Source: Candidatus Iainarchaeum sp.
GTDB taxonomy: Archaea; Iainarchaeota; Iainarchaeia; Iainarchaeales; UBA10219
Direction of reading: 5' to 3'
Assembly (NCBI GenBank): GCA_018304425.1
Contig: JAGVWE010000003.1
Coordinates: 27,163-91,162, forward strand
DNA: 64,000 bases
Both the position numbers and the translations under genes were made by a program. Of the stretch, positions 34,000 through 61,695 are shown one piece after another (the stretch's first letter is position 1; each line of letters starts with the position of its first letter). Below the pieces are notes generated by a model. The model was not told the origin of the DNA, did no database searches, and saw only the letters and a program-made list of their open reading frames with translations.

Positions 34000-34079
34000 A
34001 ACCCTCCAACCATTGAAGGCAATAAACGTATTTAAATAGATTCGCGTCCAAATTAACTCATTCAATCGGAGGTCATTCC

Positions 34080-34932: not shown

Positions 34933-34985
34933 ACACCAGATACACACACGACCCCAAATAAAAAGGTTACCTTCCTTCCTCTGTC

Positions 34986-43274: not shown

Positions 43275-43340
43275 TTTTTAAAGCCGCAAGCCAAGGAGAA
43301 ACGAATAAATACTTCGTGCGAGACAATATTAGTGGTTTGA

Positions 43341-43916
43341 ATGAAGTACTGGGCCTTGGTTTCGTTGCTGGTGCTGGCCGTTGTCTTGGCTGGCTGCACC
43401 TCAGGCACGGGCCAAGCCATTAGCGCGCCGCTGCTGCCTGACCGGGAGAACCGCACCTCGGTCTTTGTCATGGAAGACCTTGTCATGTACGGTTTTGGCA
43501 GCAAGAAACTGGAGGTAAACAGCGAGGGCCTCAAGATACTGCCCCAGTATGGAAAGCTGTTGGCCGGCGTCAGAGCCCAGTTCAAAGCAGCCAGGGACGG
43601 GGAAGCCGATACCTCGGGGAAAGCCGATAAGTCGGGTCACAAGTACACGGTGCACTTTTACTGCGACCGCTGCTATCTTGGACTCAACATGGCGTCCGAC
43701 ATTCGGGTCAGAATATACCCGCCATCCGTTAAGAAGGGAGAGAAGGCGACCGGAGAGGCCGGGGTCTGGTCGCTGCCCTACGCAAATCCCTGCGGGGAAA
43801 AAACCAAGATAAGGGCCGTATTGGAATTTGAGGACCTCAATACCAAGAAAATCACGGAACTCGAGTCCAAGGAAGTCGAATTCATTGTCCGGGGCTCGGG
43901 CACCTGCACTAAATAG
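43341..43916 (+). CDS. Putative lipoprotein
   Basis: Signal peptide with lipobox VLAGCTSGTGQA. Confidence 0.55.
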   Translation: MKYWALVSLLVLAVVLAGCTSGTGQAISAPLLPDRENRTSVFVMEDLVMYGFGSKKLEVNSEGLKILPQYGKLLAGVRAQFKAARDGEADTSGKADKSGHKYTVHFYCDRCYLGLNMASDIRVRIYPPSVKKGEKATGEAGVWSLPYANPCGEKTKIRAVLEFEDLNTKKITELESKEVEFIVRGSGTCTK

Positions 43917-43928
43917 GGAGAATGACAA

Positions 43929-44480
43929 ATGCAAAAACCAATCCTCGTTTTAGTTCTTGTTCTCGCCGTTGTCTTGGCGGGTTGCGCTTCTGGCACGGGC
44001 CAAGCCTATAGCGCGGATGATTTGCCAAGCGGAAAGAATGCCGCCGTCCAGTTGAGCGACAAAATCACGGTCAGTTACATTGACACCAAAAACCCCGATT
44101 ACAAGCCCTGGAACCCCGAAAAGTTCAGGGTTGAGGTGCCGGTGGGCGGCAGCCTCCTGAAATACGGGGCCTACAGCGACGTCGACATTGATGCGAAGAT
44201 TGTGGATGATAAACGGATGGACGAAGACCACCAGTACTGGATTCGGTTCAAGGTTGAGGGCTCGGGCATCACGCTGACGAACAGCAAGCCCTTTGAGGAG
44301 TTCCGGGTTAAGAAGTCCGTCCGGGGCACGAACATCAAGGGCAGCGTCTACTCGAATTTGATGGACTGCGGAAAACCCGGCACTATCGTGGTTCAACTCA
44401 TCTTCAGGAACCCGAAGAAAGGCCATGAAGTGGTGCTAAAGGAAATCCGCAGCGGAACCTATTACGGTAGCAACTGCTAG
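43929..44480 (+). CDS. Putative lipoprotein (paralog of the upstream gene)
   Basis: Near-identical signal peptide/lipobox (VLAVVLAGCASGTGQA); 12 nt downstream of its paralog. Confidence 0.55.
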   Translation: MQKPILVLVLVLAVVLAGCASGTGQAYSADDLPSGKNAAVQLSDKITVSYIDTKNPDYKPWNPEKFRVEVPVGGSLLKYGAYSDVDIDAKIVDDKRMDEDHQYWIRFKVEGSGITLTNSKPFEEFRVKKSVRGTNIKGSVYSNLMDCGKPGTIVVQLIFRNPKKGHEVVLKEIRSGTYYGSNC

Positions 44481-46277: not shown

Positions 46278-47468
46278 TTAGGCCCTGGCTTTGACCGCTG
46301 CGCACTCCCGCTTCAGGAGTTCGGCCTTGTCCGTGCGCTCCCAGGTGAAGTCCGGGTCGTCTCGTCCAAAGTGCCCGTAGGCGGAGGTCTTGGCGTAAAT
46401 CGGGCGCCGCAGGTTCAGGGCCTTTATCATGGCTGCAGGCCGGAAGTCGAAGTGCTTGAGGACCGCGTTGTACAAGGCCTTTTTGTCGACTTTCTCGGTG
46501 CCGAAGGTGTCTACCATGACGCTGATGGGCTTTGCCCCGCCGATGGCATAGGAAAGCTGTATCTCGCACTTGTCGGCGAGGCCTGCGGCAACCACGTTCT
46601 TGGCCGCGTAGCGCGCCATGTAGGCTCCGGACTTGTCCACCTTGGACGGGTCCTTACCGGAGAATGCCCCGCCGCCGTGGTTGCCGATGCCGCCATAGGT
46701 GTCGACGATTATTTTCCGGCCCGTGCAGCCGGCGTCCGCAACGGGCCCGCCGAGAACGAACCGGCCCGTGTTGTTGATGAAGTACTTCGTGTCCGCGTCC
46801 GCCAACGCGCCGCAAACCGGCTGGATGACTTCGCGCTTGATGTCTACCCTGAGCTTGTCCAGGGAAACATCGGGGTCGTGTTGCGCGGCGATGACCACGG
46901 CTTCCACGCGCTTGGGCTTCCCGTTCGCGTACTCGATGGTCACCTGGCTCTTGCCGTCCGGCCTGAGGTAAGTGAGCACGCCTTTCTTGCGGACTTCGGC
47001 CAGCTTGTGGCAGAGCCGGTGGGCCAGCAGGATGGGCAGGGGCATCAGCTCCGGGGTCTCGTTGGTCGCGTAGCCGGACATCATGCCCTGGTCGCCCGCT
47101 CCGACTTCCTTGTCACCGCTCGCGTCCACGCCCAACGCTATGTCGGGGCTCTGCTTGTTGATGGAAGTCAGCACGCCGACGCTCTGCGCGTCGAAACCGT
47201 ACTCGGGCTTGGTGTAGCCGACTTCGCGGAGGACGTTGCGCACGATTTGCTGCACGTCAACGTAGGTCCGGGTCGTAATCTCGCCCGTGACCAAGATGAA
47301 GCCGTTGCCGGCCATGGTCTCGCAGCCGACCCGTGCCAGGGGATCGTCCTTGTAAATGGCGTCCAGGATCGAGTCGCTGATGCGGTCGCATACCTTGTCC
47401 GGGTGCCCTTCCGTTACTGCCTCCGACGTGAACAAAAAGTCTCCGTTGCGCATGGTGTTTCCTCCCAA
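46278..47468 (-). CDS. metK: S-adenosylmethionine synthetase, bacterial/eukaryal MetK type
   Basis: [25 protein letters not shown] and full MetK domain order. Confidence 0.9.
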
Positions 47469-47581
47469 GAAAGAAGTATTCCCTGGATTAGATAGGGACC
47501 GGTTTATATTAATAATTTCCTGCTGTAATTATTCGCATAAGAATAAATAGGGTTTTAAAGGGTTTGAGACAAGGGTATTTC

Positions 47582-48154
47582 ATGCTGCCGGAATTGGGCG
47601 ACATCAAGTTCAGGCGCAAGCAGTTCGGCTTGACGCAGTCCGAGCTGGGCCACCGCGCCGGGGTCTCCCAGTCCCTCATCGCGAAAATCGAGGCCGGCAG
47701 CCTCGTGCCGAGCTATGAGAACGCCAAGAAATTGTTCGACTTGCTGGACCAGCTGCACGAGGAAGTCAAGGTGAAGGCATCCGATCTGATGACGCACAAG
47801 GTGTTGAGCATCCCCAGCAACGCGAGCCTGGCGCGGGCCGCGAAGGCCATGAAGGAGAAGGGGGTGTCCCAGCTCCCGGTCATGGACAACGAAAAAATCG
47901 TGGGCACCCTTTCCGAGAAGGACATCCTGCAGCGCATCCATGACACGGATCACGCCATTGACCTGGGGCAGTTGACGGTTGCCGAGGTCATGGGCGAGCC
48001 GCTTCCCCTCATCCGGGAGGACACGACCTTCAGCCTTATCTCCTCCCTGCTGGAACACTATCCGGCCGTGCTCATCGGAAAGAAAGGCAAAGCGGTTGGC
48101 ATCATCTCCAAGTCCGACTTGCTGAAGGTCCTCCTTAATAGAAAGAAGAAATAA
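47582..48154 (+). CDS. Transcriptional regulator: N-terminal XRE-type HTH plus CBS domain pair
   Basis: HTH (LTQSELGHRAGVSQSLIAKIE) and two CBS motifs; ATG 25 nt downstream of GTTTTAAAGGG. Confidence 0.72.
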   Translation: MLPELGDIKFRRKQFGLTQSELGHRAGVSQSLIAKIEAGSLVPSYENAKKLFDLLDQLHEEVKVKASDLMTHKVLSIPSNASLARAAKAMKEKGVSQLPVMDNEKIVGTLSEKDILQRIHDTDHAIDLGQLTVAEVMGEPLPLIREDTTFSLISSLLEHYPAVLIGKKGKAVGIISKSDLLKVLLNRKKK

Positions 48155-48279
48155 TAGTAGGCAGGGGGCGCCGGAGCAAAGGTTTAAATACGTAAGCCGC
48201 ACATAGTAATGTAGGTAGTAACTTTTTACTACTAACGAGTGACAAAGGTTTCCACTCGGAAGGGAGGAGGGAGTATTGG

Positions 48280-48582
48280 ATGAATAAGGCAATGGCTTTG
48301 GCGTTGATTGCATTGTTTGCTTTGACCGCTTTGCCTAGCTTTGTCTCAGCCTATTATCCCTATGGGTATTATGGCGGCTACCGCCCCGGCGTTTATAACT
48401 ACGGGGCACCGTATTATGGCTCGTACTATAACTACGCGCCAGGCTCGTACTACAACTACGCGCCATTCGTGTACAGCTACGCCTACTACAGGCCGGCCGT
48501 ATACAACCGGTACTACGCCTACCCAATGGGTTACCCCTATCAGTATGGGGGATGCGGCTGGGGTCCATGCGGGTATTGGTGA
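48280..48582 (+). CDS. Secreted Tyr/Gly-rich low-complexity protein (100 aa)
   Basis: Signal peptide then YYNYAPGSYYNYAP-type repeats (~30% Tyr); strong SD (GGAGGAGGGAG). Confidence 0.5.
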   Translation: MNKAMALALIALFALTALPSFVSAYYPYGYYGGYRPGVYNYGAPYYGSYYNYAPGSYYNYAPFVYSYAYYRPAVYNRYYAYPMGYPYQYGGCGWGPCGYW

Positions 48583-48642
48583 AGGCAGTAACGGCATGAA
48601 GTCTTGCCGCCTAGCTTACAGCAGCGTTGAAAAGGGAAAAAC

Positions 48643-49170
48643 ATGCGGAAAACCATTTTACTGGCGGGAATGATGGTGCTTGCGTTTTTTGCAGGCAACG
48701 CCCTTGCCGCCCCGTTTTACTACTACGGCGAGCAACGGGCCACGCCTGACTACTTCAACAGCATCGACCCCTTGATCGGCTCGCCCTATTACCCGGAAAC
48801 CGCCCGGACCTATAGCCTGCGCGGCTACTTCTTCCACCGCAACTACCCGGTGAGCGCGCTCTCCATGGCCTATGAGCCGCTACGCTCCGAGGAACGGTTT
48901 CCCTATGGCAACGTCTACTCGTATGACCCGTTCACGGGCCTGACCTATCTCACGGGCAGCAAAGGCTACCGGCCATTCGACTACCGCTACAACCAAGGCC
49001 TCGGCAGTGCCTGGAACGGCCAAGGCCTTTCGGGCCGAAGCGCCGGCCGAGACCCCTCGGGTCGAGGCCAGGGCTACCAGTACCTGGACGGCGTGGCCTA
49101 TAAGCAGCCCGCGGCAGCCAGCCCGGGCTTTGACTTTGACACGTATGCCAGAGGGGTAACCTACAGGTGA
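48643..49170 (+). CDS. Secreted aromatic-rich protein
   Basis: Signal peptide (AGNALAAPFYYYG) and Tyr/Phe-rich composition. Confidence 0.5.
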   Translation: MRKTILLAGMMVLAFFAGNALAAPFYYYGEQRATPDYFNSIDPLIGSPYYPETARTYSLRGYFFHRNYPVSALSMAYEPLRSEERFPYGNVYSYDPFTGLTYLTGSKGYRPFDYRYNQGLGSAWNGQGLSGRSAGRDPSGRGQGYQYLDGVAYKQPAAASPGFDFDTYARGVTYR

Positions 49171-49174
49171 AAAC

Positions 49175-49975
49175 ATGAAAACCACTGCCTATCTTTTGGG
49201 AATAATCTTTTTGGCCTTGTTCGCGGCCAACGCGTTCGCGCAGGCCACGGTCCAACAGAACCCCATCGATTACACGTACTACGGTTACCCGACGGACTAC
49301 CCCCTTAACTATATCCTGAAGAATAAGTTCCAGTTGTCGGGACCGGCCATGTTCGACTTCCGGTTCCTCTCACGGTACATCCCCAACGGAAAGCCGAACA
49401 TCCTCGAAGAAGGCGTGTGCGTGGACGACGCCTGCTACTGCAAGGTGAGATACGGCTTGCACGACAACACGAGTCACGTGCTGCCGCGCGACTACCAGAT
49501 TTACATCACGCACCACAACAGCGCCAGCGACTACTCCGCGCCCAGGGGCTCACACAAGGGCTTGTACATGGACTGCGGGCAAAGCGTTTACCCTCCGAAC
49601 CCCTATTATCCCGGGGAACGGAAGCCGCCCTACGTGCCCCAGGCTTACACGGCTGAAACCCTGGGCTCCAAGTACGGGACTCCGGTCAGCTGGAGCGTGG
49701 CCTATGACTACGCGAAGAACCTGCTCAAGCAACAGCCGCAGTCGGCCTACACCTACCAGCAGTTCTACGGCTATGGGAACACAAGCAACCCGCAGTTCAA
49801 CCAGTACACGCGCCAGGGCGCCTACGACTGGGGGTATCCCATTAACACGACCTACAACCCCTACCAGACCGGAAGCTCTTACCAGGGGCCTACCAGCATT
49901 GGAGACCCCCTAGCGGGGGCAGGCGGCTATAGGACCACCTACCGGCCGGGGTATACCTATCCCTACAATGGGTGA
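49175..49975 (+). CDS. Secreted Tyr-rich protein
   Basis: Signal peptide (FAANAFAQA); Tyr/Pro/Gln-rich; AGGTGA SD. Confidence 0.5.
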   Translation: MKTTAYLLGIIFLALFAANAFAQATVQQNPIDYTYYGYPTDYPLNYILKNKFQLSGPAMFDFRFLSRYIPNGKPNILEEGVCVDDACYCKVRYGLHDNTSHVLPRDYQIYITHHNSASDYSAPRGSHKGLYMDCGQSVYPPNPYYPGERKPPYVPQAYTAETLGSKYGTPVSWSVAYDYAKNLLKQQPQSAYTYQQFYGYGNTSNPQFNQYTRQGAYDWGYPINTTYNPYQTGSSYQGPTSIGDPLAGAGGYRTTYRPGYTYPYNG

Positions 49976-49980
49976 AAACC

Positions 49981-52359
49981 ATGCTGTCGCACAAAACTGT
50001 CCTCGCACTGGCCTTGTTGGTCTTGCTCGCTTCGAGCGCACTGGCCCAGACCTACAACTATTATAACCAGCCCACGGTCATCCCCGGGCAGCAGACTTCC
50101 AGGATTTCGCAGGCCGACATCGAGAAGGCCTTGCGGGAAATAGCCCGTGTCTACGGCCAAGTCCAGGGCAGGTTCATTGCCGAACAGCAGACCGGCTACC
50201 AGCTTCCAACCGTTGCCCAGGGACAGCCTTCGCTGGCCGGGCAACTGCAGAAGTACCTGCCCCAACCCACTGCCGCTGCCCAAGGACAACAGGCCAACCC
50301 GTTCCTGACCTATGGCTTCCAGCAGGACGTGACTGACTTGTTCAGCCGGGACTTCGTCCGGCAGCAACAAGGCGAGAACCCCCTGTACTCGCTGCCCCAG
50401 TACAAGCAGGACCCCCAGGCCCAAGCCGCTTACCAGCAGGCGCAACTCCCCGATTACCGGGAAGTGCGGCTGGTGGAATTGCGGGAGCGCAGCGTGCTCC
50501 AGGGAAACATGGAGTTCTTTGACGTGGAAATCAGGAACACGAACTTCATGCCCCGGGCCTATGCCTTGCACGTTGAGAAAGAGGATGCTTCCCTGAAGAC
50601 CTCGCTGTCGGAGAGCGCGTTTTCGCTGGCTCCAGGCGAGGCCCGGACCGTGAAGGCCATCGTGGAGCCCACCAAGGAGACCAAGCCGGGCGCCAAGGCG
50701 GTTTACGTCGTGGTTACGAGCAGCCCCACCACGAGCGCCCCTACTGGCACTGGTTTGGGGCAACCCAGCTATTATGGCCAGGAATACGATTATGGTGGGG
50801 CCTCGGCTCTGGCCTCGGCTGCGGCCTCGGCTTTGCCCGCGCCCGTGATGGGGTTGCAGCGGCTGGTCGTTTCATTGGAGGACTTCCAGAAACCCGTCAA
50901 GGCCGAAACCGTCGTGTTGAAAGTCAACCGCCAGGAGTATGACGTGGGCGCGAAGGGCTTTGACGTCCAGGTCAGCCCGAACAAGGTGGGCGGTTCGGAC
51001 AAGGTAGAGGTCAGCATCGCTGAAGACTTTTTCGTGGGCAGCCAGCCTGCCGTGGTGGAAGTCCTGTTCATGGATGCGTTCGACAACGCGTACTCGCTTT
51101 CCTTTGAGTTGGTGCCCTCCAAGTACGAGGTCCAGGCCCGCAACCTCGAGTTCAAGGCCCAGGTCTTCAAGGCTTTGCAGTATGGCCGCGAGTTGCGGAA
51201 CGCTTACTTCCGCGCGAGGGCTTCGACCGGCAAGTACGTGAAGAACAACGCGTACCAGTTGCAGGGGCCCCGGGCGTTCGTGAAGCTGGAGGAAACCATT
51301 CCAGTGGGCTCGAAGAATAACTTCGAGTTTTATGCGGAAGACCAGTTTGGCACTTACTTCAAGACGGTGGGAAGCTTCACCATCCGGTTCCTCGTGGCTC
51401 CCCAAGGCATGGGCTTGCCCGAGCAGGGCTACCGGGAGTACGGCAACAAGCAGGAGTACCGGGAACCGCTGACCCTGAGTGTCGTGGAAAAGCCGGTCTT
51501 GGCGGACGTGCTGCAGATTACCGCTTATCCGGCTGAAATTAGCCTTAAAGGCGGGGAAAGCCGGGCTTTTGAGGTCAGCGTCTTGAATGCGGGCACGGAG
51601 CCGGCCAGGGACCTGGACCTGGCTTTGAGGGGGCTGCCGCAGGGCGTTGAATTCACGGCGAGCCAGGTGGATGAACTGCCGGCCGGAAAGTCCGCTGTGT
51701 TCAAGGCCACGCTGGCCACTGGTCTGGACGTCGAAAAATCGTTCAGCCTGGAACTCGAGGCAAACGGCCTGGGCTTGATTGCCGCAGGCAAGGCATTGAC
51801 CCTGAAATTGGAGCCCAAGCCACGGGTGTCCGAGCAGAACCTGGTCAGCGAAGTCGTTGAACGCGAGCTCTCAAAGACCACGGTGAAGAGCAAGGTCTCC
51901 GACGAACAAATCAAGGCCGAAGTCGAGAAGATGATTTCCGCCCTGCAGTCCGAGGGCTTGAAGAAGGAGTCCGCCGAAAAAATCAGGGAACTGATTCCGG
52001 TGGACTTCGCCGTGAAGGCGAACATCTTGAATGCCGAGGGTGAGAAGGTGGACGCGCTTTACGGGATCAAGAAGGGCAAGGACTTGTTTGTCACGCGCGT
52101 GTATGACGGCATCGTGAACTCGGAGGTCAACCTGGACTACGATACCTTGAACCGGTTGGCCGTGGAGAACATGGTGGGTTCCTTTGGCCAGGCGGGCCTG
52201 GTGGGCTTTGGGGTCAGCGACCAGGGAGTCGCAGTGGGTTTGGTCATCCTGGTGATTGGCCTGGTCGCCGTCATTTTGCTGTTCCGGGAAAAGCACAGTT
52301 CCAACGAGAAGTTCCTCCGCAAGCGGAACTTCGCCGTGATTAAGGCCAAAAACCATTAA
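49981..52359 (+). CDS. Large cell-surface protein: Tyr/Gln-rich N-terminal region, CARDB/NEW3-like beta-sandwich repeats, C-terminal TM anchor
   Basis: Signal peptide; repeats of ...LAPGEARTVKA.../...LKGGESRAFEVSV... type; C-terminus LVGFGV then a TM helix then a basic tail. ATG coupled to the upstream stop (GGGTGA SD). Confidence 0.6.
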   Translation: MLSHKTVLALALLVLLASSALAQTYNYYNQPTVIPGQQTSRISQADIEKALREIARVYGQVQGRFIAEQQTGYQLPTVAQGQPSLAGQLQKYLPQPTAAAQGQQANPFLTYGFQQDVTDLFSRDFVRQQQGENPLYSLPQYKQDPQAQAAYQQAQLPDYREVRLVELRERSVLQGNMEFFDVEIRNTNFMPRAYALHVEKEDASLKTSLSESAFSLAPGEARTVKAIVEPTKETKPGAKAVYVVVTSSPTTSAPTGTGLGQPSYYGQEYDYGGASALASAAASALPAPVMGLQRLVVSLEDFQKPVKAETVVLKVNRQEYDVGAKGFDVQVSPNKVGGSDKVEVSIAEDFFVGSQPAVVEVLFMDAFDNAYSLSFELVPSKYEVQARNLEFKAQVFKALQYGRELRNAYFRARASTGKYVKNNAYQLQGPRAFVKLEETIPVGSKNNFEFYAEDQFGTYFKTVGSFTIRFLVAPQGMGLPEQGYREYGNKQEYREPLTLSVVEKPVLADVLQITAYPAEISLKGGESRAFEVSVLNAGTEPARDLDLALRGLPQGVEFTASQVDELPAGKSAVFKATLATGLDVEKSFSLELEANGLGLIAAGKALTLKLEPKPRVSEQNLVSEVVERELSKTTVKSKVSDEQIKAEVEKMISALQSEGLKKESAEKIRELIPVDFAVKANILNAEGEKVDALYGIKKGKDLFVTRVYDGIVNSEVNLDYDTLNRLAVENMVGSFGQAGLVGFGVSDQGVAVGLVILVIGLVAVILLFREKHSSNEKFLRKRNFAVIKAKNH

Positions 52360-52459
52360 CCCCCTGGAAAGCCTTGATAAGGCCTGGGAGGCTTATTCTA
52401 GCCTCAATTGCCGCCAGAGATAGGTTTAAATACTACCTCGGCAGCATGGTATATGTAGC

Positions 52460-52475
52460 TTGTTCACATGAACAA
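52460..52475. promoter_or_regulatory. 16-bp palindrome TTGTTCACATGAACAA upstream of the second surface-protein operon
   Basis: Perfect 7+2+7 palindrome between TTTAAATA (52425) and the start at 52493/52496. Confidence 0.35.
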
Positions 52476-52492
52476 GTTAATCAAGGTGGGTT

Positions 52493-53029
52493 TTGGTGAA
52501 AAACACGGCAATCTTCCTGGCACTCTTGTTGGTGGTTACAACCATCCGGGCAGAAGTCCTTGAACTGCCTGCCGAAGTCCAGTTTAGCGGACAGCCGGTC
52601 GAACTCTCTTTTAAGGTACGCAATGAGGCCTTCCAGGCCCTGCCGGTGCAGGTCGACGTCCAAGTCGTTTCCTTCAAGGTCCTGCGCAAGCCCGACCTCG
52701 TCCAACCCGGGGAAGTCCAGGAAATCCGGCTGCAGCTTCAACCCAGGAACGACCTCCTCGGCTCAACCTACCAGTCCACTATCACGGTCAAGATGGGGGC
52801 CCAGGAAACCCGGAAAGAAGTCAAATTCGTTTTCGGGGAAGCCCCCAAGCAGGCCCCGAAGAAAAATGCCCTCCCTCCAGCCACTCCAAAGGCTCCCACC
52901 GCATTCGCGGTGCTGCCCCTGGCCTTCAACGAGTTCATGATGAACCTGGGGCTCGCGTTGCTGGCGGCCATTCTCTTGATTTCGTTCATTGCAAGGCTTA
53001 CCAAAAGATTCATGCAAAACAGGGGTTGA
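52493..53029 (+). CDS. Secreted protein with a C-terminal TM anchor (178 aa)
   Basis: Signal peptide, beta-rich region, C-terminal ...TAFAVLPLAF... TM helix plus basic tail. TTG/GTG start preceded by AAGGTGGG. Confidence 0.45.
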   Translation: MVKNTAIFLALLLVVTTIRAEVLELPAEVQFSGQPVELSFKVRNEAFQALPVQVDVQVVSFKVLRKPDLVQPGEVQEIRLQLQPRNDLLGSTYQSTITVKMGAQETRKEVKFVFGEAPKQAPKKNALPPATPKAPTAFAVLPLAFNEFMMNLGLALLAAILLISFIARLTKRFMQNRG

Positions 53030-53035
53030 AAAAAG

Positions 53036-54553
53036 ATGGACAAAGTCTTCCTCACGGGTTTGTTGATGGTCTTCCTGCTCGGATTGCCTGGTCTAGCCGG
53101 CGCCGTGACTTTCTCTGACCGGCTGCCAACAGGCGATAGCTCGAACGACCCCCTCCAAAAGATTGCCGTAACCCTTTCCGACCCGGACGGCATCAACAAG
53201 GACAAGGTTTACTTCGAAGTCGACGGCTTCAACTATGCCTTGAACGACCCCCGCATGAGCTATAACGAGGCCACGGGCCGCCTGGAATATACTCCCATCC
53301 GGGAGCGGGACGAACTCGACAAGGTGGACGTACTCGTTTCAGCCGAAGACACCCTGGGAGAAAAAGGCGAACTCCGGTTTTCCTTCACGATTAACTCCAT
53401 CGGCCCGGCACCCATTGACTTCCTTTCCTTCGAAGCCGGCGTGCTCCGGTGGGCAAAGCCCTTGTCCCTGGACTCGGTGGCCAAGTACAAAGTCTACCGG
53501 GACACTTCCAGAATCAAGGACAACGGCAAGTCAGCCTACTTCCTGGCCGAGGCTACGGGATTGAATTACACGGACTCCACAAGGGAAGAAGGAAAGAGAT
53601 ACTTCTACGCCGTTACGGCGGTGGACAACGCAGGCAGCGAAGGCCGGATTGCCTTGAACGTCTCCAGTGACGGACAGGTCTTCCCGGTCGGCCAGCCGGC
53701 TCCGGCTCCCCTGCCCCTGCCGTTCCCGGTTTACCCGGCACCCACTCCATTCCCTCCGACGGTGCCATACCCCGGCTTCGAAGGATTCGACCCTTACCCC
53801 CTGCCGAGCCCCAGCATCCCGTTCACGGGCCGCGTGGACTTCGCTCCGAAGGGAGAAGTCATCCAACTCGAGCGCGGCGGCATTTCAAAGGCCGACTTCT
53901 CGGTCTCCAACGGTTTGCCCGTGGAAGTCACGGTCCGCTTCGAGATGAGTCAGGCCTCCATCGGCAACGGAACCGTTTTCATGTTCCAGCCCCAGAGCCA
54001 GCAGCTCCGCTACGGCAGGGGCTCCGGCTTCAAGCTCGCACCCGGCGAGACCACGTTTATCAGCCTGCCCGTAAAGGCCTCCGAACAGGCGTTGCCAGGC
54101 ATTTACCTGCTGGGCATCGATTTAATCGCCTTGGACGAGGAAGGCCGCATGGTCTACTCGGACAGCTCCGGGGCGGAAGTGCAGGTATTCGCGCCCCTGC
54201 CCGAGCCTTTGGCTGCCGACCTGGTTCCCGCCAACTATTACCAAGAGCTGGCACCGGTTGAAGACAACGGCCGCATCGAGGCCAGAATCGTCGAAGCGCC
54301 TCAGCCACTTATCCGCATCGCCGTGGAAGACGCCCAGGTTGCGCCCAAGCAAAAGGCAGCCGAGGCCGCAGCCGAGGCCAGAGCCGAGGCCCGTCAACCG
54401 CTGACCCAGGTCGCAGTCAAAGAGGCAGGCAATGCCCCTGCCGGGTTCTTCAACCTGGCCGCCATGACCACCCTGAACATGGCCCTCGGCTTCCTGGTGC
54501 TGGCCTTGTTGCTGGTGTACGGTTTAATCAGGCTTTCAGTGGAGAGGCGGTGA
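53036..54553 (+). CDS. Cell-surface protein with an FN3-like domain, Pro-rich linker and C-terminal TM anchor
   Basis: Signal peptide; FN3-like YFYAVTAVDNAGSEG; C-terminus PAGFFNLAA then a TM helix then RLSVERR. Confidence 0.55.
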   Translation: MDKVFLTGLLMVFLLGLPGLAGAVTFSDRLPTGDSSNDPLQKIAVTLSDPDGINKDKVYFEVDGFNYALNDPRMSYNEATGRLEYTPIRERDELDKVDVLVSAEDTLGEKGELRFSFTINSIGPAPIDFLSFEAGVLRWAKPLSLDSVAKYKVYRDTSRIKDNGKSAYFLAEATGLNYTDSTREEGKRYFYAVTAVDNAGSEGRIALNVSSDGQVFPVGQPAPAPLPLPFPVYPAPTPFPPTVPYPGFEGFDPYPLPSPSIPFTGRVDFAPKGEVIQLERGGISKADFSVSNGLPVEVTVRFEMSQASIGNGTVFMFQPQSQQLRYGRGSGFKLAPGETTFISLPVKASEQALPGIYLLGIDLIALDEEGRMVYSDSSGAEVQVFAPLPEPLAADLVPANYYQELAPVEDNGRIEARIVEAPQPLIRIAVEDAQVAPKQKAAEAAAEARAEARQPLTQVAVKEAGNAPAGFFNLAAMTTLNMALGFLVLALLLVYGLIRLSVERR

Positions 54554-56382
54554 AACAAGTCATGAACACGAAAATCGTTTTAGCTGGACTGGTATTGCTG
54601 CTCGTGGCAGGCCTTGCCGCGTTCGCAAAAGCCGAACCCATGGTAATGGCAGGCCAGGCAAAAACCTTGACGGTGGAACTCACCAACACGAAGAGTGTGG
54701 CCGAGACCCTGGACTTGTCCATTGAAAACCAGAACACGGGCATCATCGCCGAAGTCGAGCAAAAAGCGCTGACGCTCAAGGCCGGCGAACGCCGGACCGT
54801 GAACGTGATAGTCAAGGCACTGCCGGACGCCAGGGAAGGAACCTATTCCATCCGCTTGGTCGGCAAAAAGATGGTAACAGTCCAGGCCCAGCCGCAACCC
54901 ATGCAGCCAGTAACGGCTCCCGGAGCGGTTCCAGCCATGAACCAGCCCATGATGCCCATTCCGCCTGTTTACGGCCAGGCACCCGCTTACAACCAGGCCC
55001 TCCCAGGGTTTTCACCCGGACAGCCTGGAAGGCCGGTGTTCTATCCAACCATTCCAGGCAGGCCCCCGCTCCTCGTCGACGAAGGCGAAATGGATGTGGA
55101 TGGCGCCCTAGCCATCGAAGCACATCTCTCCAATGCCGTGGACCCCGACAGCGTGAGGCTGGGCGTTAGGAACGAACTCTTTGACGCGAGCCGCAGGGAA
55201 CTCAACGTGAGAGGCATCCCCGGCGGCGCCATCGTGGAATTCGCAGATGATTTTTTCGAGAAAAAGGAAATCGTGCCCGTGTTCCTTGCCCTCGGCGACA
55301 GCCGCGGCAACGAGTACCGGTTTTCCTATGCCTTCAGCCCAGTGACCCTTGCCGTGGAAGACCCGCGGCTCTCGGTCCGGATCAACGAACTGGATGACGT
55401 GGACCCGACCTCGGTGCGGTTCGACCTCCGCGCCAACGACTTTGGCGGAACCTTCACCGCTGACGGGCCGGGCATTTCCCTGAACCCCGTGACCGGCGAG
55501 ATCGTGGCCGACCTGCGCGGCGCGCCGCTGCGGCTCGGCAGCCGGATTCCCTTCAGCGTGTACGCGAAGGACCTGGTGGGAAAGGAGTTCCGGGTCTCGG
55601 GAGACTTCGTGCTTGACTTTGACGACCGGCTTGCCGCCGCAGGCCAGGCAGTGAACAGCGGTGACACGCTCAAGGACTTCGTGGACTCGGTGGACCGGCA
55701 AAAGTACCGGGACTACATCCTCTACCGGAGGAACGTGACCGAACCCTACATCAACTCGAGGAACTACATTGACAGCGTGAACCGACAGATGGACATCGAC
55801 GCGGTAAGATACGGCGGGCCCATCTACCCGGCCAGCGAACCATTCCTGGTGCAGGACCGGGACCGCATCACGTACTTCCAGGACGCGGAAATGGATGGCA
55901 GCCCCTACGCGGACGCCATTCCATTCGGGCCCATGAACCCCTTCCTGGGGGACAGCTTCCCGGCACCCGAAGCAGGCCAGTTCGAGCCCAGGGAAACCGT
56001 GCGCGAAGAAGTGGTCTTCGAGAAAGCACTTTCCTTCCGAGTAGTGAACGAACGGGCTTCCACGGCCGCTCCATCCACGCGAGTAGCCGGGAAACCAGCC
56101 AAGCCCAACGCGGCCCAGGCTTTTGCCTCGCCCGTGCGGGTCACGGAAGCAGGGACCTCACCGGTAGCCGGCTTTGTTTCCTTCAGCTCCGTTGCCGCCA
56201 TCGGAACGATTGGCGCGGGCATCGTCGTGGTGCTCTTGCTGGCCTTCATCGTGGGCTCGCTGAGCCGGCCTACGGGCCAGCCAACGGTTCGACCGGCCAG
56301 AACCGGGAACCGTTTGCCCCGGAAAAGAACTGGAAACATTTCACCGGCCATGCACGTCATCCTCAACTACCGAAGCGGATGA
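54550..56382 (+). CDS. Cell-surface protein with a C-terminal TM anchor (610 aa)
   Basis: Signal peptide; C-terminus PVAGFVSFSS then a TM helix then a basic tail. Start overlaps the upstream stop. Confidence 0.55.
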   Translation: MKQVMNTKIVLAGLVLLLVAGLAAFAKAEPMVMAGQAKTLTVELTNTKSVAETLDLSIENQNTGIIAEVEQKALTLKAGERRTVNVIVKALPDAREGTYSIRLVGKKMVTVQAQPQPMQPVTAPGAVPAMNQPMMPIPPVYGQAPAYNQALPGFSPGQPGRPVFYPTIPGRPPLLVDEGEMDVDGALAIEAHLSNAVDPDSVRLGVRNELFDASRRELNVRGIPGGAIVEFADDFFEKKEIVPVFLALGDSRGNEYRFSYAFSPVTLAVEDPRLSVRINELDDVDPTSVRFDLRANDFGGTFTADGPGISLNPVTGEIVADLRGAPLRLGSRIPFSVYAKDLVGKEFRVSGDFVLDFDDRLAAAGQAVNSGDTLKDFVDSVDRQKYRDYILYRRNVTEPYINSRNYIDSVNRQMDIDAVRYGGPIYPASEPFLVQDRDRITYFQDAEMDGSPYADAIPFGPMNPFLGDSFPAPEAGQFEPRETVREEVVFEKALSFRVVNERASTAAPSTRVAGKPAKPNAAQAFASPVRVTEAGTSPVAGFVSFSSVAAIGTIGAGIVVVLLLAFIVGSLSRPTGQPTVRPARTGNRLPRKRTGNISPAMHVILNYRSG

Positions 56383-56434
56383 CGTCCCCTATTTTTCTTT
56401 CAACCGCCCAGCCCGCGCTTGACCACCGGCACGT

Positions 56435-58294
56435 TCAACGCTCCTTTCGAACCCAGGCCAGGGCAGTCAACAGCAGGGCATAGCCCCCTAACAAGCCCAG
56501 TAAAGGCGTGAGCGCGGCCAGGGAGAGGCCTTTCACCATCAAGGCCAGCAGGACCTCTTTTGCTGCAGTCAAGGGCAGGAACCTGCTTATCGTGGCAATC
56601 CCGGCCGGCATGAACTCGAAGGGGAAAATCGTTCCGCTCAGGAACAGCATGGGAATCATGGCCAGCAACGAGCCAAGGATGGCCGTGGACAGGGTTTGCG
56701 TGAACTGGGCAATGAACAAGCCCAGCGCCGAAAAGGCGAGCGCGATGACGACCAGCACGGCCAACAACTCCAGGGGCTGCGCGTGCAGGGGCACGTTGAA
56801 GGCGAACACGGCCAAGCCCAGCACGATGCCGGCCTCCACCAAGGCGAACGCGAGTTGGCCGAACAGTTTGCCCGCCAGCCAGGTTCCCCTCGAGACGCTG
56901 GACAAGGCCACGCGTTTGGAAATCCCGGCATTGCGTTCGAGCACGACCGACAACGCGGTCAAGAGGATGCAGGTCAAGAGCAGGACAATGGCCACCCCTA
57001 CGGGGGTCACCACCGCCAGTTGGCTGGCCTGGAACGCCTCTTTTTCCGTGACCTCGACTGGCGTCACCAGGTACGCGGGCTGGTAGGCCTTGAAGCCGTG
57101 CACGTTTTCCAGCATGCCGTCCATCAAAGCGCGCGTTTTCTTGACGTCCTCGTTGAGTTCGGCCTGGGATTCCTTGGCCTCGAAAACGGTTGGCTTGCCT
57201 TCGGCGACCGTTTGCTCGAGCGAGGAAACGCTGTCCTCGAAGCCGCCCAGCGATTTCCTGGCGTCCTCGAGCCCGACCTCAGTGGCGTCAACGCCGGAAA
57301 GGGCTCCTTCGACGCGCGCGGCCGTGGAATCGATGTCCACCAGGACGCTGCGCAAGTCCGTGGAAACCTTGTTCATGGAATTCACCTGCACGGCCAGGCT
57401 GTTCTGCATCTGCTGGAGCTGCGAGCGCAGGGGTTCCGCGGTGTAGGCCTGCATCTGGGCCAGGTTTTGCCGCATGCGGAGCAATTCGCTGGTCTGCGCG
57501 CCCGACGTGTTCTGGGCGTCGAAGACTTTTTTCTTGTAGCCGGTGAGCAGCGCGCGCGTGTCCTCCAGGCCGGAACGCGAGGACTCCAGGCGGGTCTTCG
57601 TGTCGCCATAGAACGAGTTGAAGGCGTCCAGGTCACCGGTTTCCTTTTCCAGGTCAATGGAATCGAATTGTTGGCTGAGCTTTTCCAGTTTTTCGCGGGT
57701 GCGCGCCAGGGTCTCGGAGAACGAGAGCAGCTTCTGGTTCTCGCTGTCCAAGTCGGCCTCGATTTTTCCCAGGTCGGACCAGATGTCGCCCAGGAGCTCG
57801 GTCGCCGTCTGGTAGGCCACGCCGCGCACGGCCGCACTGACCTGGGCGGCAACGGCTTTGCCGGCCACGACCGAGGAATTGTCGTACACGACTTCCACGG
57901 AAACCGGCTGGTTCTTGGCCGAGGGCCGCTGCACCAGGATGGCCACCGTTTTTTGCCCGGAGGCGACGGCTTGCCGTGCCGCTTCCGGCGTGGAAACGAA
58001 TTCGAGTTTCAACGCGTTCTGGTCCGAAATCTTTTCCAAAAAGCTTTCGCGGTCAAAGCCTTCCCCGGATTCAGGGAGGTAGAGGGCGGCCGAGACGCTT
58101 TCGATGGCCGGCTTTCCCAGGGCTTCCGCGTACGCCGTGCCCTGCCCAAAGGCGAGGGCCAGGGAGAGCATGACCAGCGCAGGGTAGACCAGCACCAGGG
58201 CCAGGGCAATCCGTTGCGCGCCGATGAGCTTGACTTCCTTGGAGGCGATGGCGCCCAGTTGGAGCAGGGGCTGGAAGGGGCTAGGGCTTGGCAC
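56435..58294 (-). CDS. ABC-2 type transporter permease with a large extracytoplasmic coiled-coil domain (YhgE/Pip-like)
   Basis: N-terminal TM helix, long coiled-coil region, C-terminal 5-6 TM ABC-2 core. Confidence 0.7.
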   Translation of the reverse strand: MPSPSPFQPLLQLGAIASKEVKLIGAQRIALALVLVYPALVMLSLALAFGQGTAYAEALGKPAIESVSAALYLPESGEGFDRESFLEKISDQNALKLEFVSTPEAARQAVASGQKTVAILVQRPSAKNQPVSVEVVYDNSSVVAGKAVAAQVSAAVRGVAYQTATELLGDIWSDLGKIEADLDSENQKLLSFSETLARTREKLEKLSQQFDSIDLEKETGDLDAFNSFYGDTKTRLESSRSGLEDTRALLTGYKKKVFDAQNTSGAQTSELLRMRQNLAQMQAYTAEPLRSQLQQMQNSLAVQVNSMNKVSTDLRSVLVDIDSTAARVEGALSGVDATEVGLEDARKSLGGFEDSVSSLEQTVAEGKPTVFEAKESQAELNEDVKKTRALMDGMLENVHGFKAYQPAYLVTPVEVTEKEAFQASQLAVVTPVGVAIVLLLTCILLTALSVVLERNAGISKRVALSSVSRGTWLAGKLFGQLAFALVEAGIVLGLAVFAFNVPLHAQPLELLAVLVVIALAFSALGLFIAQFTQTLSTAILGSLLAMIPMLFLSGTIFPFEFMPAGIATISRFLPLTAAKEVLLALMVKGLSLAALTPLLGLLGGYALLLTALAWVRKER

Positions 58295-59273
58295 TGGCCT
58301 TCACCCCCGCAGGGGGCAGGTGCCTTTCCCCCGTCAAGTGGATGAACACGTCTTCGAGTTCGGGTTCCTTCAACTGCTGGCTCAACACCTTGATGCCCTT
58401 GCCTTCCACCAGGGAAACGATTTTGCCAGCGGCCTCAACCTGATTCCTTTCAGGCAGGGAAACGAAGAGGAAGTGGTGCTTCCACTGGACGCCGGCCTTC
58501 GGGTAGAGTCGGTGGATGCCGGCCAGCAGCTCTTTTTCGCGTTCCAGGTCCGTGCCTTCCGCGGCGCGGAGGGCCAGGATTTTTTCCCCGCCAAAGCGCG
58601 CGATGAGTTCCTTGGGGCTGCCGTGGGCCAGGATTTCCCCGTGGAACAGGATGGCCAGCTCGTCGCACAGCTTCTGGGCTTCCTCCATGTAGTGGGTGGT
58701 CAAGACAATGGCTTTGCCCTGTTTTTTGAGTTCCACGATTTTCTTCCAGAAGGTGTGCCGCACGTTGGGGTCCAAGGCAACCGTGGGCTCGTCGAAGAAA
58801 ACGAGGTCGGGGTCGTGGACCAGCGAGCACGCGATGTTCAGCAGGCGGCGGTAACCGCCCGAGAGTCGCTCGGCGCGCGTTGCCGCAAAGGGCCTGAGTT
58901 CCAGCCACCCGAGGAGGGCGGACACGCGTTCATTCAATGCCGCGCCGCCCAGGCCGTTGAGGCAGCCGAAGAAGCGGAGGTTTTCTTCCACGGAAAAGGA
59001 GGGGTAAAAGCATTCCTCCTGGGGCACGACTCCGAGGAACGCGTGCAGGTCCTTGCCGTATTCCTTCAAATCGCGGCCGCGGATTTTCACGTGGCCGGCA
59101 TCGCTGGGGTAGAGGCCGGAGAGGATGCCGAGCAGGGTGGACTTGCCCGCGCCGTTCGGGCCCAGGAGGCCGAAGACCTGGCCGTTTTCCACGGCAAAGG
59201 AAACCCCTTTCAACAAGGCCCGGCCCTGGAAGGACTTGCCAATGCCCTGTGCCTCTAACGCCGATTTCATCAT
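58281..59273 (-). CDS. ABC transporter ATP-binding protein
   Basis: Walker A (GPNGAGKST), signature (LSGGYRR) and Walker B (LVFFDEPT). ATG at 59273 (MMKSALEAQGI); 14-nt overlap with the permease gene. Confidence 0.88.
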   Translation of the reverse strand: MMKSALEAQGIGKSFQGRALLKGVSFAVENGQVFGLLGPNGAGKSTLLGILSGLYPSDAGHVKIRGRDLKEYGKDLHAFLGVVPQEECFYPSFSVEENLRFFGCLNGLGGAALNERVSALLGWLELRPFAATRAERLSGGYRRLLNIACSLVHDPDLVFFDEPTVALDPNVRHTFWKKIVELKKQGKAIVLTTHYMEEAQKLCDELAILFHGEILAHGSPKELIARFGGEKILALRAAEGTDLEREKELLAGIHRLYPKAGVQWKHHFLFVSLPERNQVEAAGKIVSLVEGKGIKVLSQQLKEPELEDVFIHLTGERHLPPAGVKASAKP

Positions 59274-59305
59274 AGAATTGGGGCCTATGGGGTTAAAATG
59301 CGTTT

Positions 59306-59315
59306 CCAAGGCGTT
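59306..59315. repeat. 10-bp direct repeat CCAAGGCGTT (left copy) flanking the low-GC Fic segment
   Basis: Identical 10-mer at 60894..60903; the intervening ~1.6 kb is ~40% GC against ~60% for the flanks. Confidence 0.35.
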
Positions 59316-59441
59316 GGCTTTGCTCTTAAAGTCGCTTTCGCTCCTTAAGTCGGGGTCTGCTCAGGTAGCCCCCCTGTTCGAATTAAGGCCCAATCAAGGC
59401 CAATAGGAAATAATGCCTGTTTCAGCACAACTACTAATTAC

Positions 59442-59515
59442 TACTAATTTAGTTAAAATTAGTAATATCGATAGGTTTTTATTACTAACATTTACTAATT
59501 TAGTTAAGATTAGTA
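59442..59515. promoter_or_regulatory. Two copies of a 23-bp palindromic site (TACTAATTTAGTTAAAATTAGTA / TACTAATTTAGTTAAGATTAGTA) upstream of fic
   Basis: Two near-identical palindromes ~50 bp apart in an AT-rich leader, plus the adjacent direct repeat CTACTAATT x2. Confidence 0.45.
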
Positions 59516-59529
59516 ATTGAGTTGTTCGT

Positions 59530-60893: not shown

Positions 60894-60903
60894 CCAAGGC
60901 GTT
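60894..60903. repeat. 10-bp direct repeat CCAAGGCGTT (right copy); also part of the hairpin AACGCC-caa-GGCGTT plus T5
   Basis: Matches 59306..59315; embedded in a terminator-like hairpin between the convergent fic and trmB-like genes. Confidence 0.35.
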
Positions 60904-61592
60904 CAAGGCTTTTTAAGGGGGTGCAGGTGGGCCGCGAGGAACGGGCTTTCCAGGAAGAGCGCGCGCTCCTTGCGGGGGTCTTCCAGGGGCGGGTGCAAGA
61001 ACAAGAGCACGCGTTTTTGGTCGAAAACCGCATATCTCCCGGTCGGGCTTGCCTTATAATGGACTTTAACGCCTTTCCTGGCCAACTTATCGTTTTTTGC
61101 AGACAAGACCCCTTGTTTTCGCTTGATTCCCTCCCGGTCCGAGCAAATTACCACGCTTTCCCTGCAATTATCCGTTTCCTCGGCGATACGGTTGTAGATG
61201 GTGTGCCGGCCGGTGAGGATGACTGCGTCCTCGGCAACGCCTTGGCGTTCCTCTTTGGCGCCCTCGAGGAGGCTGGACAAGGAGAACGCAATGGTCTTCA
61301 ATTCCTGCAAGTCCTTGTGGTGGCGCTCCGTTTTGTCCAGGGCCAGGTTCTTGTACACGGTTTCCAGGCGAAGGGCCTTGAACTCCACGGGCTTGCTGGG
61401 CCTCCGCACCACGAAGCCCTTGGCCTCCAGGGAGGAAAGCACGTCATAGATGCGCGCCCGGGGAATGCCCGCGTCCTTCGACAACACCGCCGGCGTAGCG
61501 GACCCGAACCGCGAGAGCGCGGAATAGGTCTTGGACTCGTACTCGTTCAAGCCCAACCGCTTCAAGGAATCCAGGAGCTCGTGTCTAGGCAT
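60903..61592 (-). CDS. TrmB-family transcriptional regulator
   Basis: N-terminal TrmB HTH (LGLNEYESKTYSALSRFGSATPAVLSKDAGIPRARIYDVLSSLEAKGFVVR). Confidence 0.72.
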   Translation of the reverse strand: MPRHELLDSLKRLGLNEYESKTYSALSRFGSATPAVLSKDAGIPRARIYDVLSSLEAKGFVVRRPSKPVEFKALRLETVYKNLALDKTERHHKDLQELKTIAFSLSSLLEGAKEERQGVAEDAVILTGRHTIYNRIAEETDNCRESVVICSDREGIKRKQGVLSAKNDKLARKGVKVHYKASPTGRYAVFDQKRVLLFLHPPLEDPRKERALFLESPFLAAHLHPLKKP

Positions 61593-61695
61593 TCACCATC
61601 GACTAGTAGTAAGTCGTTACTAGAATAAATAGGTTGCGCGCCCGGGCAAGCCGTGGTTGCCACGGTTTTTAAACCCCTGCCCAGTCATTACCGCT

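Follow-up and report, generated by a model that had tools for sequence, protein, structure and literature searches.

Seven consecutive plus-strand genes (g1 to g7, positions 48280-56382) in a 64,000-nucleotide window of a Candidatus Iainarchaeum contig (JAGVWE010000003.1) on balance probably make up a locus for cell-surface proteins (envelope or adhesion) in a Candidatus Diapherotrites archaeon. It would be a version, elaborated in this lineage, of a module that is also conserved in metagenome-assembled genomes (MAGs) of other, apparently DPANN, archaea. The locus encodes small secreted tyrosine-rich proteins followed by membrane-anchored immunoglobulin (Ig)-like proteins that have a C-terminal tag module in common. 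The sequences come from groundwater metagenome assemblies, and NCBI and UniRef list the encoded proteins as hypothetical, from MAGs of Candidatus Diapherotrites or Iainarchaeum, which belong to the DPANN archaea. Very little of the DPANN cell envelope has been characterised, although these ultrasmall organisms depend on the contacts with other cells that it mediates. The finding adds to what is already known of archaeal surface proteins with C-terminal anchors and overturns nothing.

The initial annotation had described a run of seven genes for signal-peptide proteins, and its open reading frames (ORFs) and their coordinates were confirmed. By eye, each of g1-g7 starts with a signal peptide of n-h-c type (basic n-region, hydrophobic core and AxA-type cleavage site), and most of the genes are preceded by a Shine-Dalgarno-like GGAGG or GGTGG. 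Comparison with orthologues and public gene calls placed the likely starts at ATG 49981 for g4, GTG 52496 for g5 and ATG 54562 for g7. The combination of a signal peptide with a C-terminal transmembrane (TM) helix was restricted to g4-g7 among the ORFs of the window; g1-g3 have no membrane anchor and their signal peptides are of the classical Sec type. The mature forms of g1-g3 are basic (isoelectric point 8.2-8.7) and those of g4, g6 and g7 acidic (4.7-5.6). The gene order in the window, whose GC content is about 60%, is YbaK, MetK, a helix-turn-helix (HTH)-CBS regulator, g1-g7, an ABC-2 transporter, Fic, TrmB (minus strand) and a methyltransferase. Close relatives with matching gene order were found on contigs L057 and L059 (GCA_041643015.1), L058 and L007 (GCA_041643115.1) and L008 (GCA_041643025.1), where L057 and L058 have the order (MetK-)HTH-CBS-g1-g2-g3-g4 and L007 and L008 the order g4-g5-g6-g7. 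Six near-identical strain contigs (L001-L006, 99.8-100% identity) added no evolutionary information. Each of the seven genes is under purifying selection, with ratios of nonsynonymous to synonymous substitution rates (dN/dS) of 0.12-0.47, synonymous divergence from the relatives being near saturation.

The large proteins had been credited with beta-sandwich domains, and this was borne out by NEW3 in g4 above its cutoff, fibronectin type III (FN3) in g6 and sub-threshold Ig matches in g7. g4 (49972..52359, + strand, likely start 49981) is, from Pfam and its orthologues, a type-I anchored surface protein of 792/795 aa with a YNYYNQ tip, Ig-like and NEW3 domains, the tag and a TM helix. Its NEW3 domain (PF10633, residues 528-581) scores 34.4 bits against a gathering score of 24.4, and the tyrosine-rich tip QTYNYYNQ is conserved in orthologue N-termini. 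The FixG_C-like Ig matches in g4 and g7 and the Ig-like match in g5 all stayed below the Pfam cutoff; g4 and g7 are distant paralogues (E 8e-8). g5 (52493..53029, +, likely start 52496; 177/178 aa) comprises one Ig-like domain, a degenerate tag and a TM anchor, as supported by its homology to proteins of related loci (L64_319, L63_279 and L60_319). g6 (53036..54553, +), an anchored protein of 505 aa, was assigned from orthologues, AlphaFold2 (AF2) and Foldseek three beta-sandwich domains, one of them FN3, with Pro-rich linkers, a disordered stalk of about 90 residues, the tag AGFFNL (54440-54457) and a TM helix. g7 (54550..56382, +, likely start 54562; 606/610 aa) was recognised from its ORF, its paralogy and its motif as anchored and Ig-like, its C-terminal part being made up of the tag AGFVSF (56167-56184), a TM helix and a long basic tail. 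Both g6 and g7 are about 50% identical to their orthologues, those of g7 being known as N-terminal fragments, and apart from these fragments a homologue search with g7 returned only g7 itself.

The AF2 model of g6 has a mean predicted local distance difference test score (pLDDT) of 55, with the folded domains at about 70-80, and places beta-sandwiches at residues 25-118, 130-209 and 266-385, the disordered stalk at 387-478 and the TM helix at 479-504. Residues ~128-210 behave as FN3 in tblastn, which links them to bacterial sequences with the motif FYAVTAVD, in a PDB match to 3mpc ('Fn3-like protein', E=0.038) and in the model itself. Foldseek returned generic Ig/FN3 domain strings (RbmA, SiiE, SbsB, gp130) at low TM-scores, among them those of adhesins, matrix scaffolds and one S-layer protein. 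The model aligns as a string of beta-sandwiches with Vibrio cholerae RbmA, Salmonella SiiE and Geobacillus SbsB (E 1e-6 to 1e-7), but TM-scores of 0.13-0.23 and identities of about 10% confine the likeness to fold class. The pattern FYAVTAVD was also tried on genome contigs, where it retrieved 48 loci, none of them labelled archaeal, and was set aside as apparently a generic FN3 motif; the C-terminal half of g6 found no relatives in a scan of metagenome contigs.

The tag module covers about 55-65 residues: the tag is followed by a spacer (about 10 residues, rich in Gly and Ser), then by a single TM helix and finally by a basic tail. The initial annotation had noticed a common C-terminal motif, read it as (A/V)GF and taken the 178-aa protein, g5, to be without it. 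The motif is real and conserved, while its register is AG[LF][FV]x[LF] in g4 (AGLVGF), g6 and g7, and more generally [AT]G[LF][FV]x[LF]. Motif alignment placed the module of g4 at 52192..52356 (+), with the tag at 52192-52209, the spacer, the TM core at 52234-52284 and the basic tail. Because the C-terminus of the g4 orthologue reads QAGLVSFG where g4 itself has QAGLVGFG, the conserved register is AGLVxF and not VGF. In the g6 orthologues, which are 51-53% identical, G470-F471-F472 are invariant amid a variable region. g5 was found to carry the tag in a degenerate form in which Gly is replaced by Ala (TAFAVLP; AAFVVLP and AALVVMP in orthologues), and the TM sequence LLLISF[IL]ARLTK is nearly invariant among the g5 orthologues.

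The same tag was met well beyond the close relatives. A phmmer search with g4 among 1.84 billion representative proteins found no full-length relative and gave 15 weak hits; for 14 of them the best-matching stretch of g4 fell within residues 166-630, where the Ig/NEW3 domains of the ectodomain are. Thirteen of the 15 end in a TM helix, and all 13, which were recovered via the NEW3 region and not the C-terminus, carry the tag before it. The check on orthologues that had been proposed for the C-terminal motif turned out in its favour, both in the g4 and g6 orthologues and in these distant relatives. When 22 sequences were aligned on the tag, the consensus was [AT]-G-[LF]-[FV(AL)]-x-[LF(G)] with an invariant Gly, and the distance from the tag to the most hydrophobic 17-mer was 8-25 residues (most commonly 12; 10-13 in g4, g6 and g7). 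The pattern G[LFM][VFLAI]x[LFG], which was defined post hoc on the sequences scored, occurred in 16/16 pre-TM segments against a mean of 1.7/16 and a maximum of 6 in 2000 composition-preserving shuffles, and only twice in 11,298 ectodomain residues. A Trp is present in the cytoplasmic tail of 12 of the 16 tagged proteins. Window g6 ends in …RLSVERR, where the orthologues P0025, P0026 and P0028 run on as …SNDR.G.K.W, and has a shortened cytoplasmic tail without the Trp.

The tag is also found on von Willebrand factor A (VWA) proteins of two related loci (AGLVFL in L060, AGLFNL in L064) and on small g5-like proteins of three (AGLFGL in L060, TGLFALP in L063, TGFFTF in L064), and at least five archaeal lineages have surface proteins that bear the module on otherwise unrelated ectodomains. 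No Pfam family covers it, and it is absent from the NCBIfam sorting-signal models; the Pfam family DUF7356, considered as a candidate for the tag, was rejected as it maps to the Ig-like region of the ectodomain. We regard the module as uncatalogued, since it matches no catalogued sorting signal tested, and the tag offers a searchable handle for the DPANN surface proteome and for any cognate processing enzyme.

The locus has deep synteny with L064 (GCA_964540145.1), which has 50% GC and is archaeal by its tRNA-intron endonuclease. Its order is YbaK, MetK, HTH-CBS, a 319-aa protein, a 1646-aa protein, a 1030-aa VWA protein, TrmB (minus strand), a FAD/NAD-binding oxidoreductase and a methyltransferase. 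L060 has a 319-aa protein, a 621-aa protein, VWA and TrmB (minus strand), and L063 a 279-aa protein followed by one of 988 aa. Between the window and L064, MetK is 64% identical, HTH-CBS 48% (E 1e-63; directly upstream of the g5-like gene in L064) and TrmB 37% (E 6e-45); with the TrmB genes found at the end of the tagged-protein clusters in L060 and L064, the window TrmB shares 37-38% identity (E 1e-44/45). Among the surface proteins, g5 matched L64_319 (E 8e-14), L63_279 (E 1e-10) and L60_319 (E 6e-9), g4 matched L64_1646 (E 4e-25) and is also related to L63_988, and g6 matched two parts of L64_1646 (E 1e-9 and 2e-6). Judged from these homologies, the ancestral unit, placed between HTH-CBS and TrmB, starts with a small anchored Ig protein like g5 and continues with at least one large anchored Ig protein; in L064 and L060 a VWA protein precedes TrmB. 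The window has the g5 homology, the g4/g6/g7 homology, the shared tag and the HTH-CBS and TrmB flanks, and is without the VWA member; the large protein is represented in its lineage by g6, g7 and the paralogue g4. The left flank, an HTH(XRE)-CBS regulator (47564..48154, +, likely start 47582; Pfam HTH_3 and two CBS domains), holds the same cluster-adjacent position in L057 and L058, and the right flank is the TrmB-family regulator (60903..61592, -; PF01978). The slot from HTH-CBS to TrmB is defined and has conserved leaders, which makes its regulation directly testable.

The genes had been grouped into two operon-like blocks of a dedicated surface locus, and this arrangement was upheld by an archaeal BRE/TATA promoter (transcription factor B recognition element and TATA box) in front of each block. 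Both blocks start with (A)AGGTTTAAATAC, followed 24-27 nt downstream by ATGTAG and an inverted repeat. The TATA box of block 1, g1-g4 (AAAGGTTTAAATAC, 48183..48190, +), is conserved in L057 and L058, and that of block 2, g5-g7 (ATAGGTTTAAATAC, 52425..52432, +), in L007, L064 and L063; TTTAAATA, the BRE/TATA sequence at 48183 and 52425, was counted 9 times in the window, where 0.36 occurrences would be expected. The g1 leader contains the inverted repeat GTAGTAA-CTTT-TTACTAC (48215..48232, +) with perfect 7-nt arms, 24 nt after the TATA box, which is invariant in L057 and L058 and folds as an 8-bp RNA hairpin. A near-twin of it, GTAGTAA-GTCG-TTACTAG (61606..61623, +), lies immediately upstream of the TrmB start codon after a TATA-like element; the window thereby has 2 matches, where 0.01 would be expected. 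In the g5 leader the inverted repeat TAGCTTGTTCA-CA-TGAACAAGTTA (52456..52479, +) has 11-nt arms with 91% complementarity. Its core TTGTTCACATGAACAA (52460-52475) had been called a 16-bp perfect palindrome; it is a conserved inverted repeat of the second leader, though one of 7+2+7 form, TTGTTCA-CA-TGAACAA, with a CA centre that makes it imperfect. Conservation of the block 2 leader spans the whole stretch between TATA box and start codon, also in L064 and L063, whose encoded proteins are only about 30% identical. The element TGAAYAAGTKAAT was met solely at g5-family leaders in about 0.9 Mb of compared loci, the sole substitution in the L007 g5 leader falls in the loop or spacer, and shuffled sequences form less stable RNA hairpins than the g5 leader does (z = -3.1).

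Of the 11 copies of the hexamer TAGTAA/TTACTA in the 64 kb, 10 lie in 3 of the 24 intergenic regions, namely the g1 leader, the ABC-ATPase/Fic region and the TrmB promoter. These sites may constitute a small local regulon. TrmB may autoregulate and control block 1, and HTH-CBS, which would ancestrally be adjacent to the g5 leader, may act on that leader. Transcription probably starts in the neighbourhood of the inverted repeats, which could work as operators for the flanking regulators, as 5' mRNA hairpins, or as both. Hairpins at 5' termini can stabilise the mRNAs of abundant surface proteins, and such stabilisation here would be an equally good explanation. The divergent intergenic region between MetK and HTH-CBS (47469-47563) contains the repeat TTATTC-N6-GAATAA, kept in similar form in L057 (1526-1650, TATTCC-AATA-GGAATA) and L064 (7030-7175, TATTC-TTATAG-GAATA). 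This repeat could be an operator that links the CBS regulator, perhaps a sensor of adenosyl ligands, to S-adenosylmethionine synthetase; its resemblance to the half-sites TTGTTC/GAACAA may be a weak lead.

The elaboration specific to the lineage of the window includes the tyrosine-rich trio. The initial annotation had called g1-g3 extremely Tyr-rich, and they are indeed the only ORFs of at least 60 aa in the window with at least 10% Tyr, but only g1 is extreme. g1 (48280..48582, +), a secreted basic protein of 100 aa with 28% Tyr (28/76 residues, or 37%, in the mature part) and a C-terminal CGWGPC motif, was characterised from its ORF, composition and orthologues. It does contain the tandem repeat that had been seen at both protein and DNA level, two copies of 24 bp at 48418..48465 (+) that code for GSYYNYAP GSYYNYAP (Tandem Repeats Finder score 89, 95% matches). 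g2 (48643..49170, +) is on the same kinds of evidence a secreted Tyr/Gly-rich protein of 175 aa with 12.6% Tyr, and g3 (49175..49975, +), a secreted protein of 266 aa with 13.9% Tyr, has a Cys4/His-rich core at about residues 45-147 that is conserved in its orthologues. The g1 orthologues in L057 and L058 retain the signal peptide, 26-27% Tyr, the YYRPAV motif and the C-terminal Cys pair GC..GPC.., and the repeat region between the conserved motifs has been rebuilt (dN/dS 0.12-0.36). The g2 orthologues are 54-64% identical (dN/dS 0.24-0.36), and those of g3 (P0031-33) 67-75% identical with a nearly invariant core (dN/dS 0.19-0.31). Conserved orthologues and dN/dS below 0.4 rule out, at the level of sequence evolution, that these ORFs are low-complexity artefacts.

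The search for Tyr-rich homologues that had been recommended gave none for g1-g3 beyond the close relatives, and a scan of metagenome contigs with g3 found no relatives. In L060, L063 and L064 no ORF reached 10% Tyr except two short antisense ORFs, and by comparison with these loci the trio was seen solely in the lineage of the window. The literature search found no archaeal precedent for a Tyr-rich surface protein, and the trio stands as a conserved orphan family. Tyr-rich structural proteins cross-linked by dityrosine include the Bacillus spore-coat proteins CotC/CotU and insect resilin, which are small, secreted or deposited, basic, 25-30% Tyr and rich in short Gly/Pro repeats. The tyrosine-rich proteins of the locus may resemble them in these traits, but they have no sequence homology to them, no oxidase or peroxidase was identified in the locus, and the conserved Cys4/His-rich core of g3 is not of low complexity. 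A role of g1-g3 in a sheath, an amyloid or a cross-linked matrix is conjecture. In L059 (1-600) the g3 orthologue is truncated at its 5' end and preceded by unrelated sequence with twice-repeated GC hairpins (CCCCCCAGCTTGCTGGGGGG), which might reflect a rearrangement, the junction of a mobile element or a chimeric assembly.

Convergent to block 2 lies an ABC-2 permease with a coiled coil together with its ATPase (56435..59309, -), as had been described; the assignments are based on Pfam and NCBIfam, with Pfam scores of 84.4, 59.4 and 111.7 bits, all of them above the cutoffs (PF12698/PF01061 and PF00005). The coiled coil of about 220 residues (169-389, with SMC/crescentin-like matches) lies in the long segment between the N-terminal hydrophobic segment and the ABC-2 membrane domain. 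A Fic/DOC protein with a C-terminal DeoR-like HTH (59530/59605-60888, +) follows between the ABC-2 pair and TrmB and is absent from L064 and L060. The intergenic region between the ABC genes and Fic (59423-59524) has two copies of TACTAATTTAGTTAARATTAGTA.

We propose that all of g1-g7 would be exported by Sec, that g4-g7, as type-I proteins, would stay attached to the cytoplasmic membrane and make up an outer protein coat, and that g1-g3 would be co-transcribed with g4 and associate with the acidic anchored ectodomains, possibly via the YNYYNQ tip of g4, as a matrix or adhesive component. This docking is suggested by the basic charge of g1-g3, the acidic charge of the ectodomains and the Tyr-rich tip of g4. 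Consensus promoters and 5' hairpins could be indirect hints of an abundant S-layer-like protein. Several observations weigh against this picture. The words coat and S-layer come only from the protein architecture; PDB sequence searches with g4, g6 and g7 gave nothing meaningful and no similarity to a characterised S-layer protein, and the match of the NCBIfam model NF033506 ('PACE-CTERM-PROT putative S-layer protein') to the Ig-like part of g7 (16.1 bits, E 0.0034) is far below its 110-bit cutoff. N-glycosylation sequons are few, at 0-3 per protein. The AF2 model of g3 was unusable (pLDDT 30) and gave no structural clue to the function of g1-g3. The tag statistics carry the post hoc definition of their pattern. 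The assignment of operators to regulators rests on motif co-occurrence in one genome, and the TrmB promoter and the cluster leader of L064 share no k-mer of 7 nt or more.

The nature of the tag can be read in two ways, and a retained membrane anchor with a conserved juxtamembrane motif is favoured on the protein sequences, for the motif stands apart from the TM core, the TM sequence is conserved, the tail often has a Trp and no archaeosortase was found in the window or at related loci. The other way, which we consider rather unlikely, is that the tag, TM helix and basic tail are a cleavable sorting signal of a new CTERM class like PGF-CTERM/ArtA, in which a dedicated membrane enzyme would cleave at or close to the motif and attach the protein to an acceptor, a lipid or another envelope component. 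A motif followed by a TM helix and a basic tail is the tripartite layout that defines the substrates of sortases, exosortases and archaeosortases (PMC6098224), and the likeness extends to Sec export of archaeal surface proteins, a Gly-aromatic/aliphatic motif and several substrates per genome (PMC6098224). The motif is conserved where its flanks are not (in g6 orthologues), is common to unrelated FN3/Ig, NEW3/Big, VWA and small Ig ectodomains, is carried by several proteins clustered within single loci and has strong statistics (16/16 against 1.7/16 shuffled). The distant relative P0045 in addition matches NF033506 over model positions 488-617 of 627, which include the C-terminal end (28.8 bits, E 5e-7, cutoff 110), and this suggests, from the model name alone, that a CTERM-type tag in DPANN has been noticed by curators. 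NF033506 is an exception-level single-protein model of which neither P0045 nor g7 is a member, no separate tag model matched isolated C-termini, and no paper using the name PACE-CTERM was found.

The initial annotation had held the motif to be similar to the PGF-CTERM signal without being identical, and the latter is confirmed by the search it called for. PGF-CTERM (TIGR04126) gave no match at E<=0.1 with the full proteins and none at E<=10 with the isolated C-termini of g4-g7 and four relatives, and the other NCBIfam CTERM models (PEF-, PIP-, VPXXXP-, Loki-, GlyGly-, PEP-CTERM and others) gave none above cutoff, the best matches being Loki-CTERM (12.0 bits, E 0.2, cutoff 19.9) and GG_III-CTERM (about 11 bits against 22). 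The C-terminal TM helix followed by a basic cluster is present as in PGF-CTERM proteins, but the sequence here is [AT]G[LF][FV]x[LF] in place of a Pro-Gly-Phe directly before the TM helix, and the tag is set off from the TM core rather than abutting it. The near-invariant TM sequence of g5 and the frequent tail Trp suggest a function of the TM helix and tail after insertion. The link to an archaeosortase that had been suggested found no support: no exosortase- or archaeosortase-like gene is present in the window, where every ORF with at least 4 TM segments was assigned to another family (histidine kinase, SSF symporter, TraB/Tiki, CDP-alcohol phosphatidyltransferase, MarC, YdjM and ABC-2), nor in the gene lists of L060, L063 and L064, and archaeosortases are reported from only a subset of Euryarchaeota (PMC6098224). 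As a retained anchor the module would resemble that of the SlaB-type stalk proteins of the Sulfolobales S-layer. These type-I proteins combine beta-sandwich ectodomains with a long stalk and are held permanently by a C-terminal TM helix, in organisms without archaeosortase (PMC6098224); g4-g7 have no sequence similarity to them, and no partner lattice protein was identified. It is improbable, to our judgement, that the tag is an undescribed DPANN sorting signal processed by an enzyme other than an archaeosortase and displaying a coat with a cross-linked Tyr-rich trio, which if true would be the first archaeal Tyr-based extracellular matrix.

Two further explanations concern the locus as a whole. 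It could be a host-attachment apparatus of an ectosymbiotic DPANN cell, made of Ig/FN3 adhesins (with VWA in relatives) and a Tyr-rich 'glue'; we hold this to be unlikely as a separate explanation, and it overlaps with an envelope or adhesion locus rather than excluding it. The FN3, Ig-like and VWA domains are adhesin-like, the turnover is fast (g6 and g7 at about 50% against orthologues, when MetK keeps 64% even against the more distant L064), and DPANN archaea are mostly ectosymbionts. In composition, Tyr-rich basic proteins such as g1-g3 are similar to adhesive proteins. Nothing specific to attachment was found, however, and no ligand-binding site was identified; the features equally fit a generic surface coat, and strong promoters and 5' hairpins would suit abundant structural proteins. 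The coupling of the ABC-2 transporter to the cluster, for export, shedding or immunity towards bacteriocin-like Tyr-rich peptides or for assembly of the layer, appears very unlikely. The pair is adjacent and convergent with a gap of 52 nt, and the TAGTAA/TTACTA hexamer common to the g1 leader, the ABC-ATPase/Fic region and the TrmB promoter hints at shared regulation. Yet g1-g3 carry classical Sec signal peptides, the ABC/Fic repeats are of another architecture (TACTAAT-N9-ATTAGTA, twice) and lie nearer to the Fic gene, and in L064 and L060 both the pair and Fic are missing and TrmB directly follows the surface genes; the absence is based on these two loci, as all close-relative contigs end short of the transporter. 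With the ABC-2 pair, Fic and the Tyr-rich trio present only in the lineage of the window, the proposal that the exporter is part of the system loses its main support, and the pair looks like a lineage-specific neighbour rather than a component.

Some other features of the window were also recorded. There is one tRNA-Pro, with no other Rfam match in the 64 kb. The MetK gene (46278-47468, -) matches the bacterial/eukaryotic-type Pfam domains S-AdoMet_synt N/M/C and is recovered in L064 at the identity given above; the MAT family of archaeal type is a different one. At 42120-44480, two lipobox proteins (…LAGC(T/A)SGTGQ) that are paralogues of each other and have no Pfam match come after a membrane protein of the TraB/PrgY/GumN type (Tiki superfamily). 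The Tiki-superfamily membrane metalloprotease arCOG02142 is listed among the membrane proteins whose distribution tracks archaeal lipoproteins (PMC12462473). A membrane histidine kinase with HisKA and HATPase_c domains and a PilS-like 6-TM sensor domain is encoded at 23894-25192 (-). In this archaeal genome an ORF with a Sigma-70 region 4 HTH (E 7e-12) is found at 34228-34947 (-), and an overlapping pair of TTTAAATA boxes lies just upstream of it, at 34029-34038.

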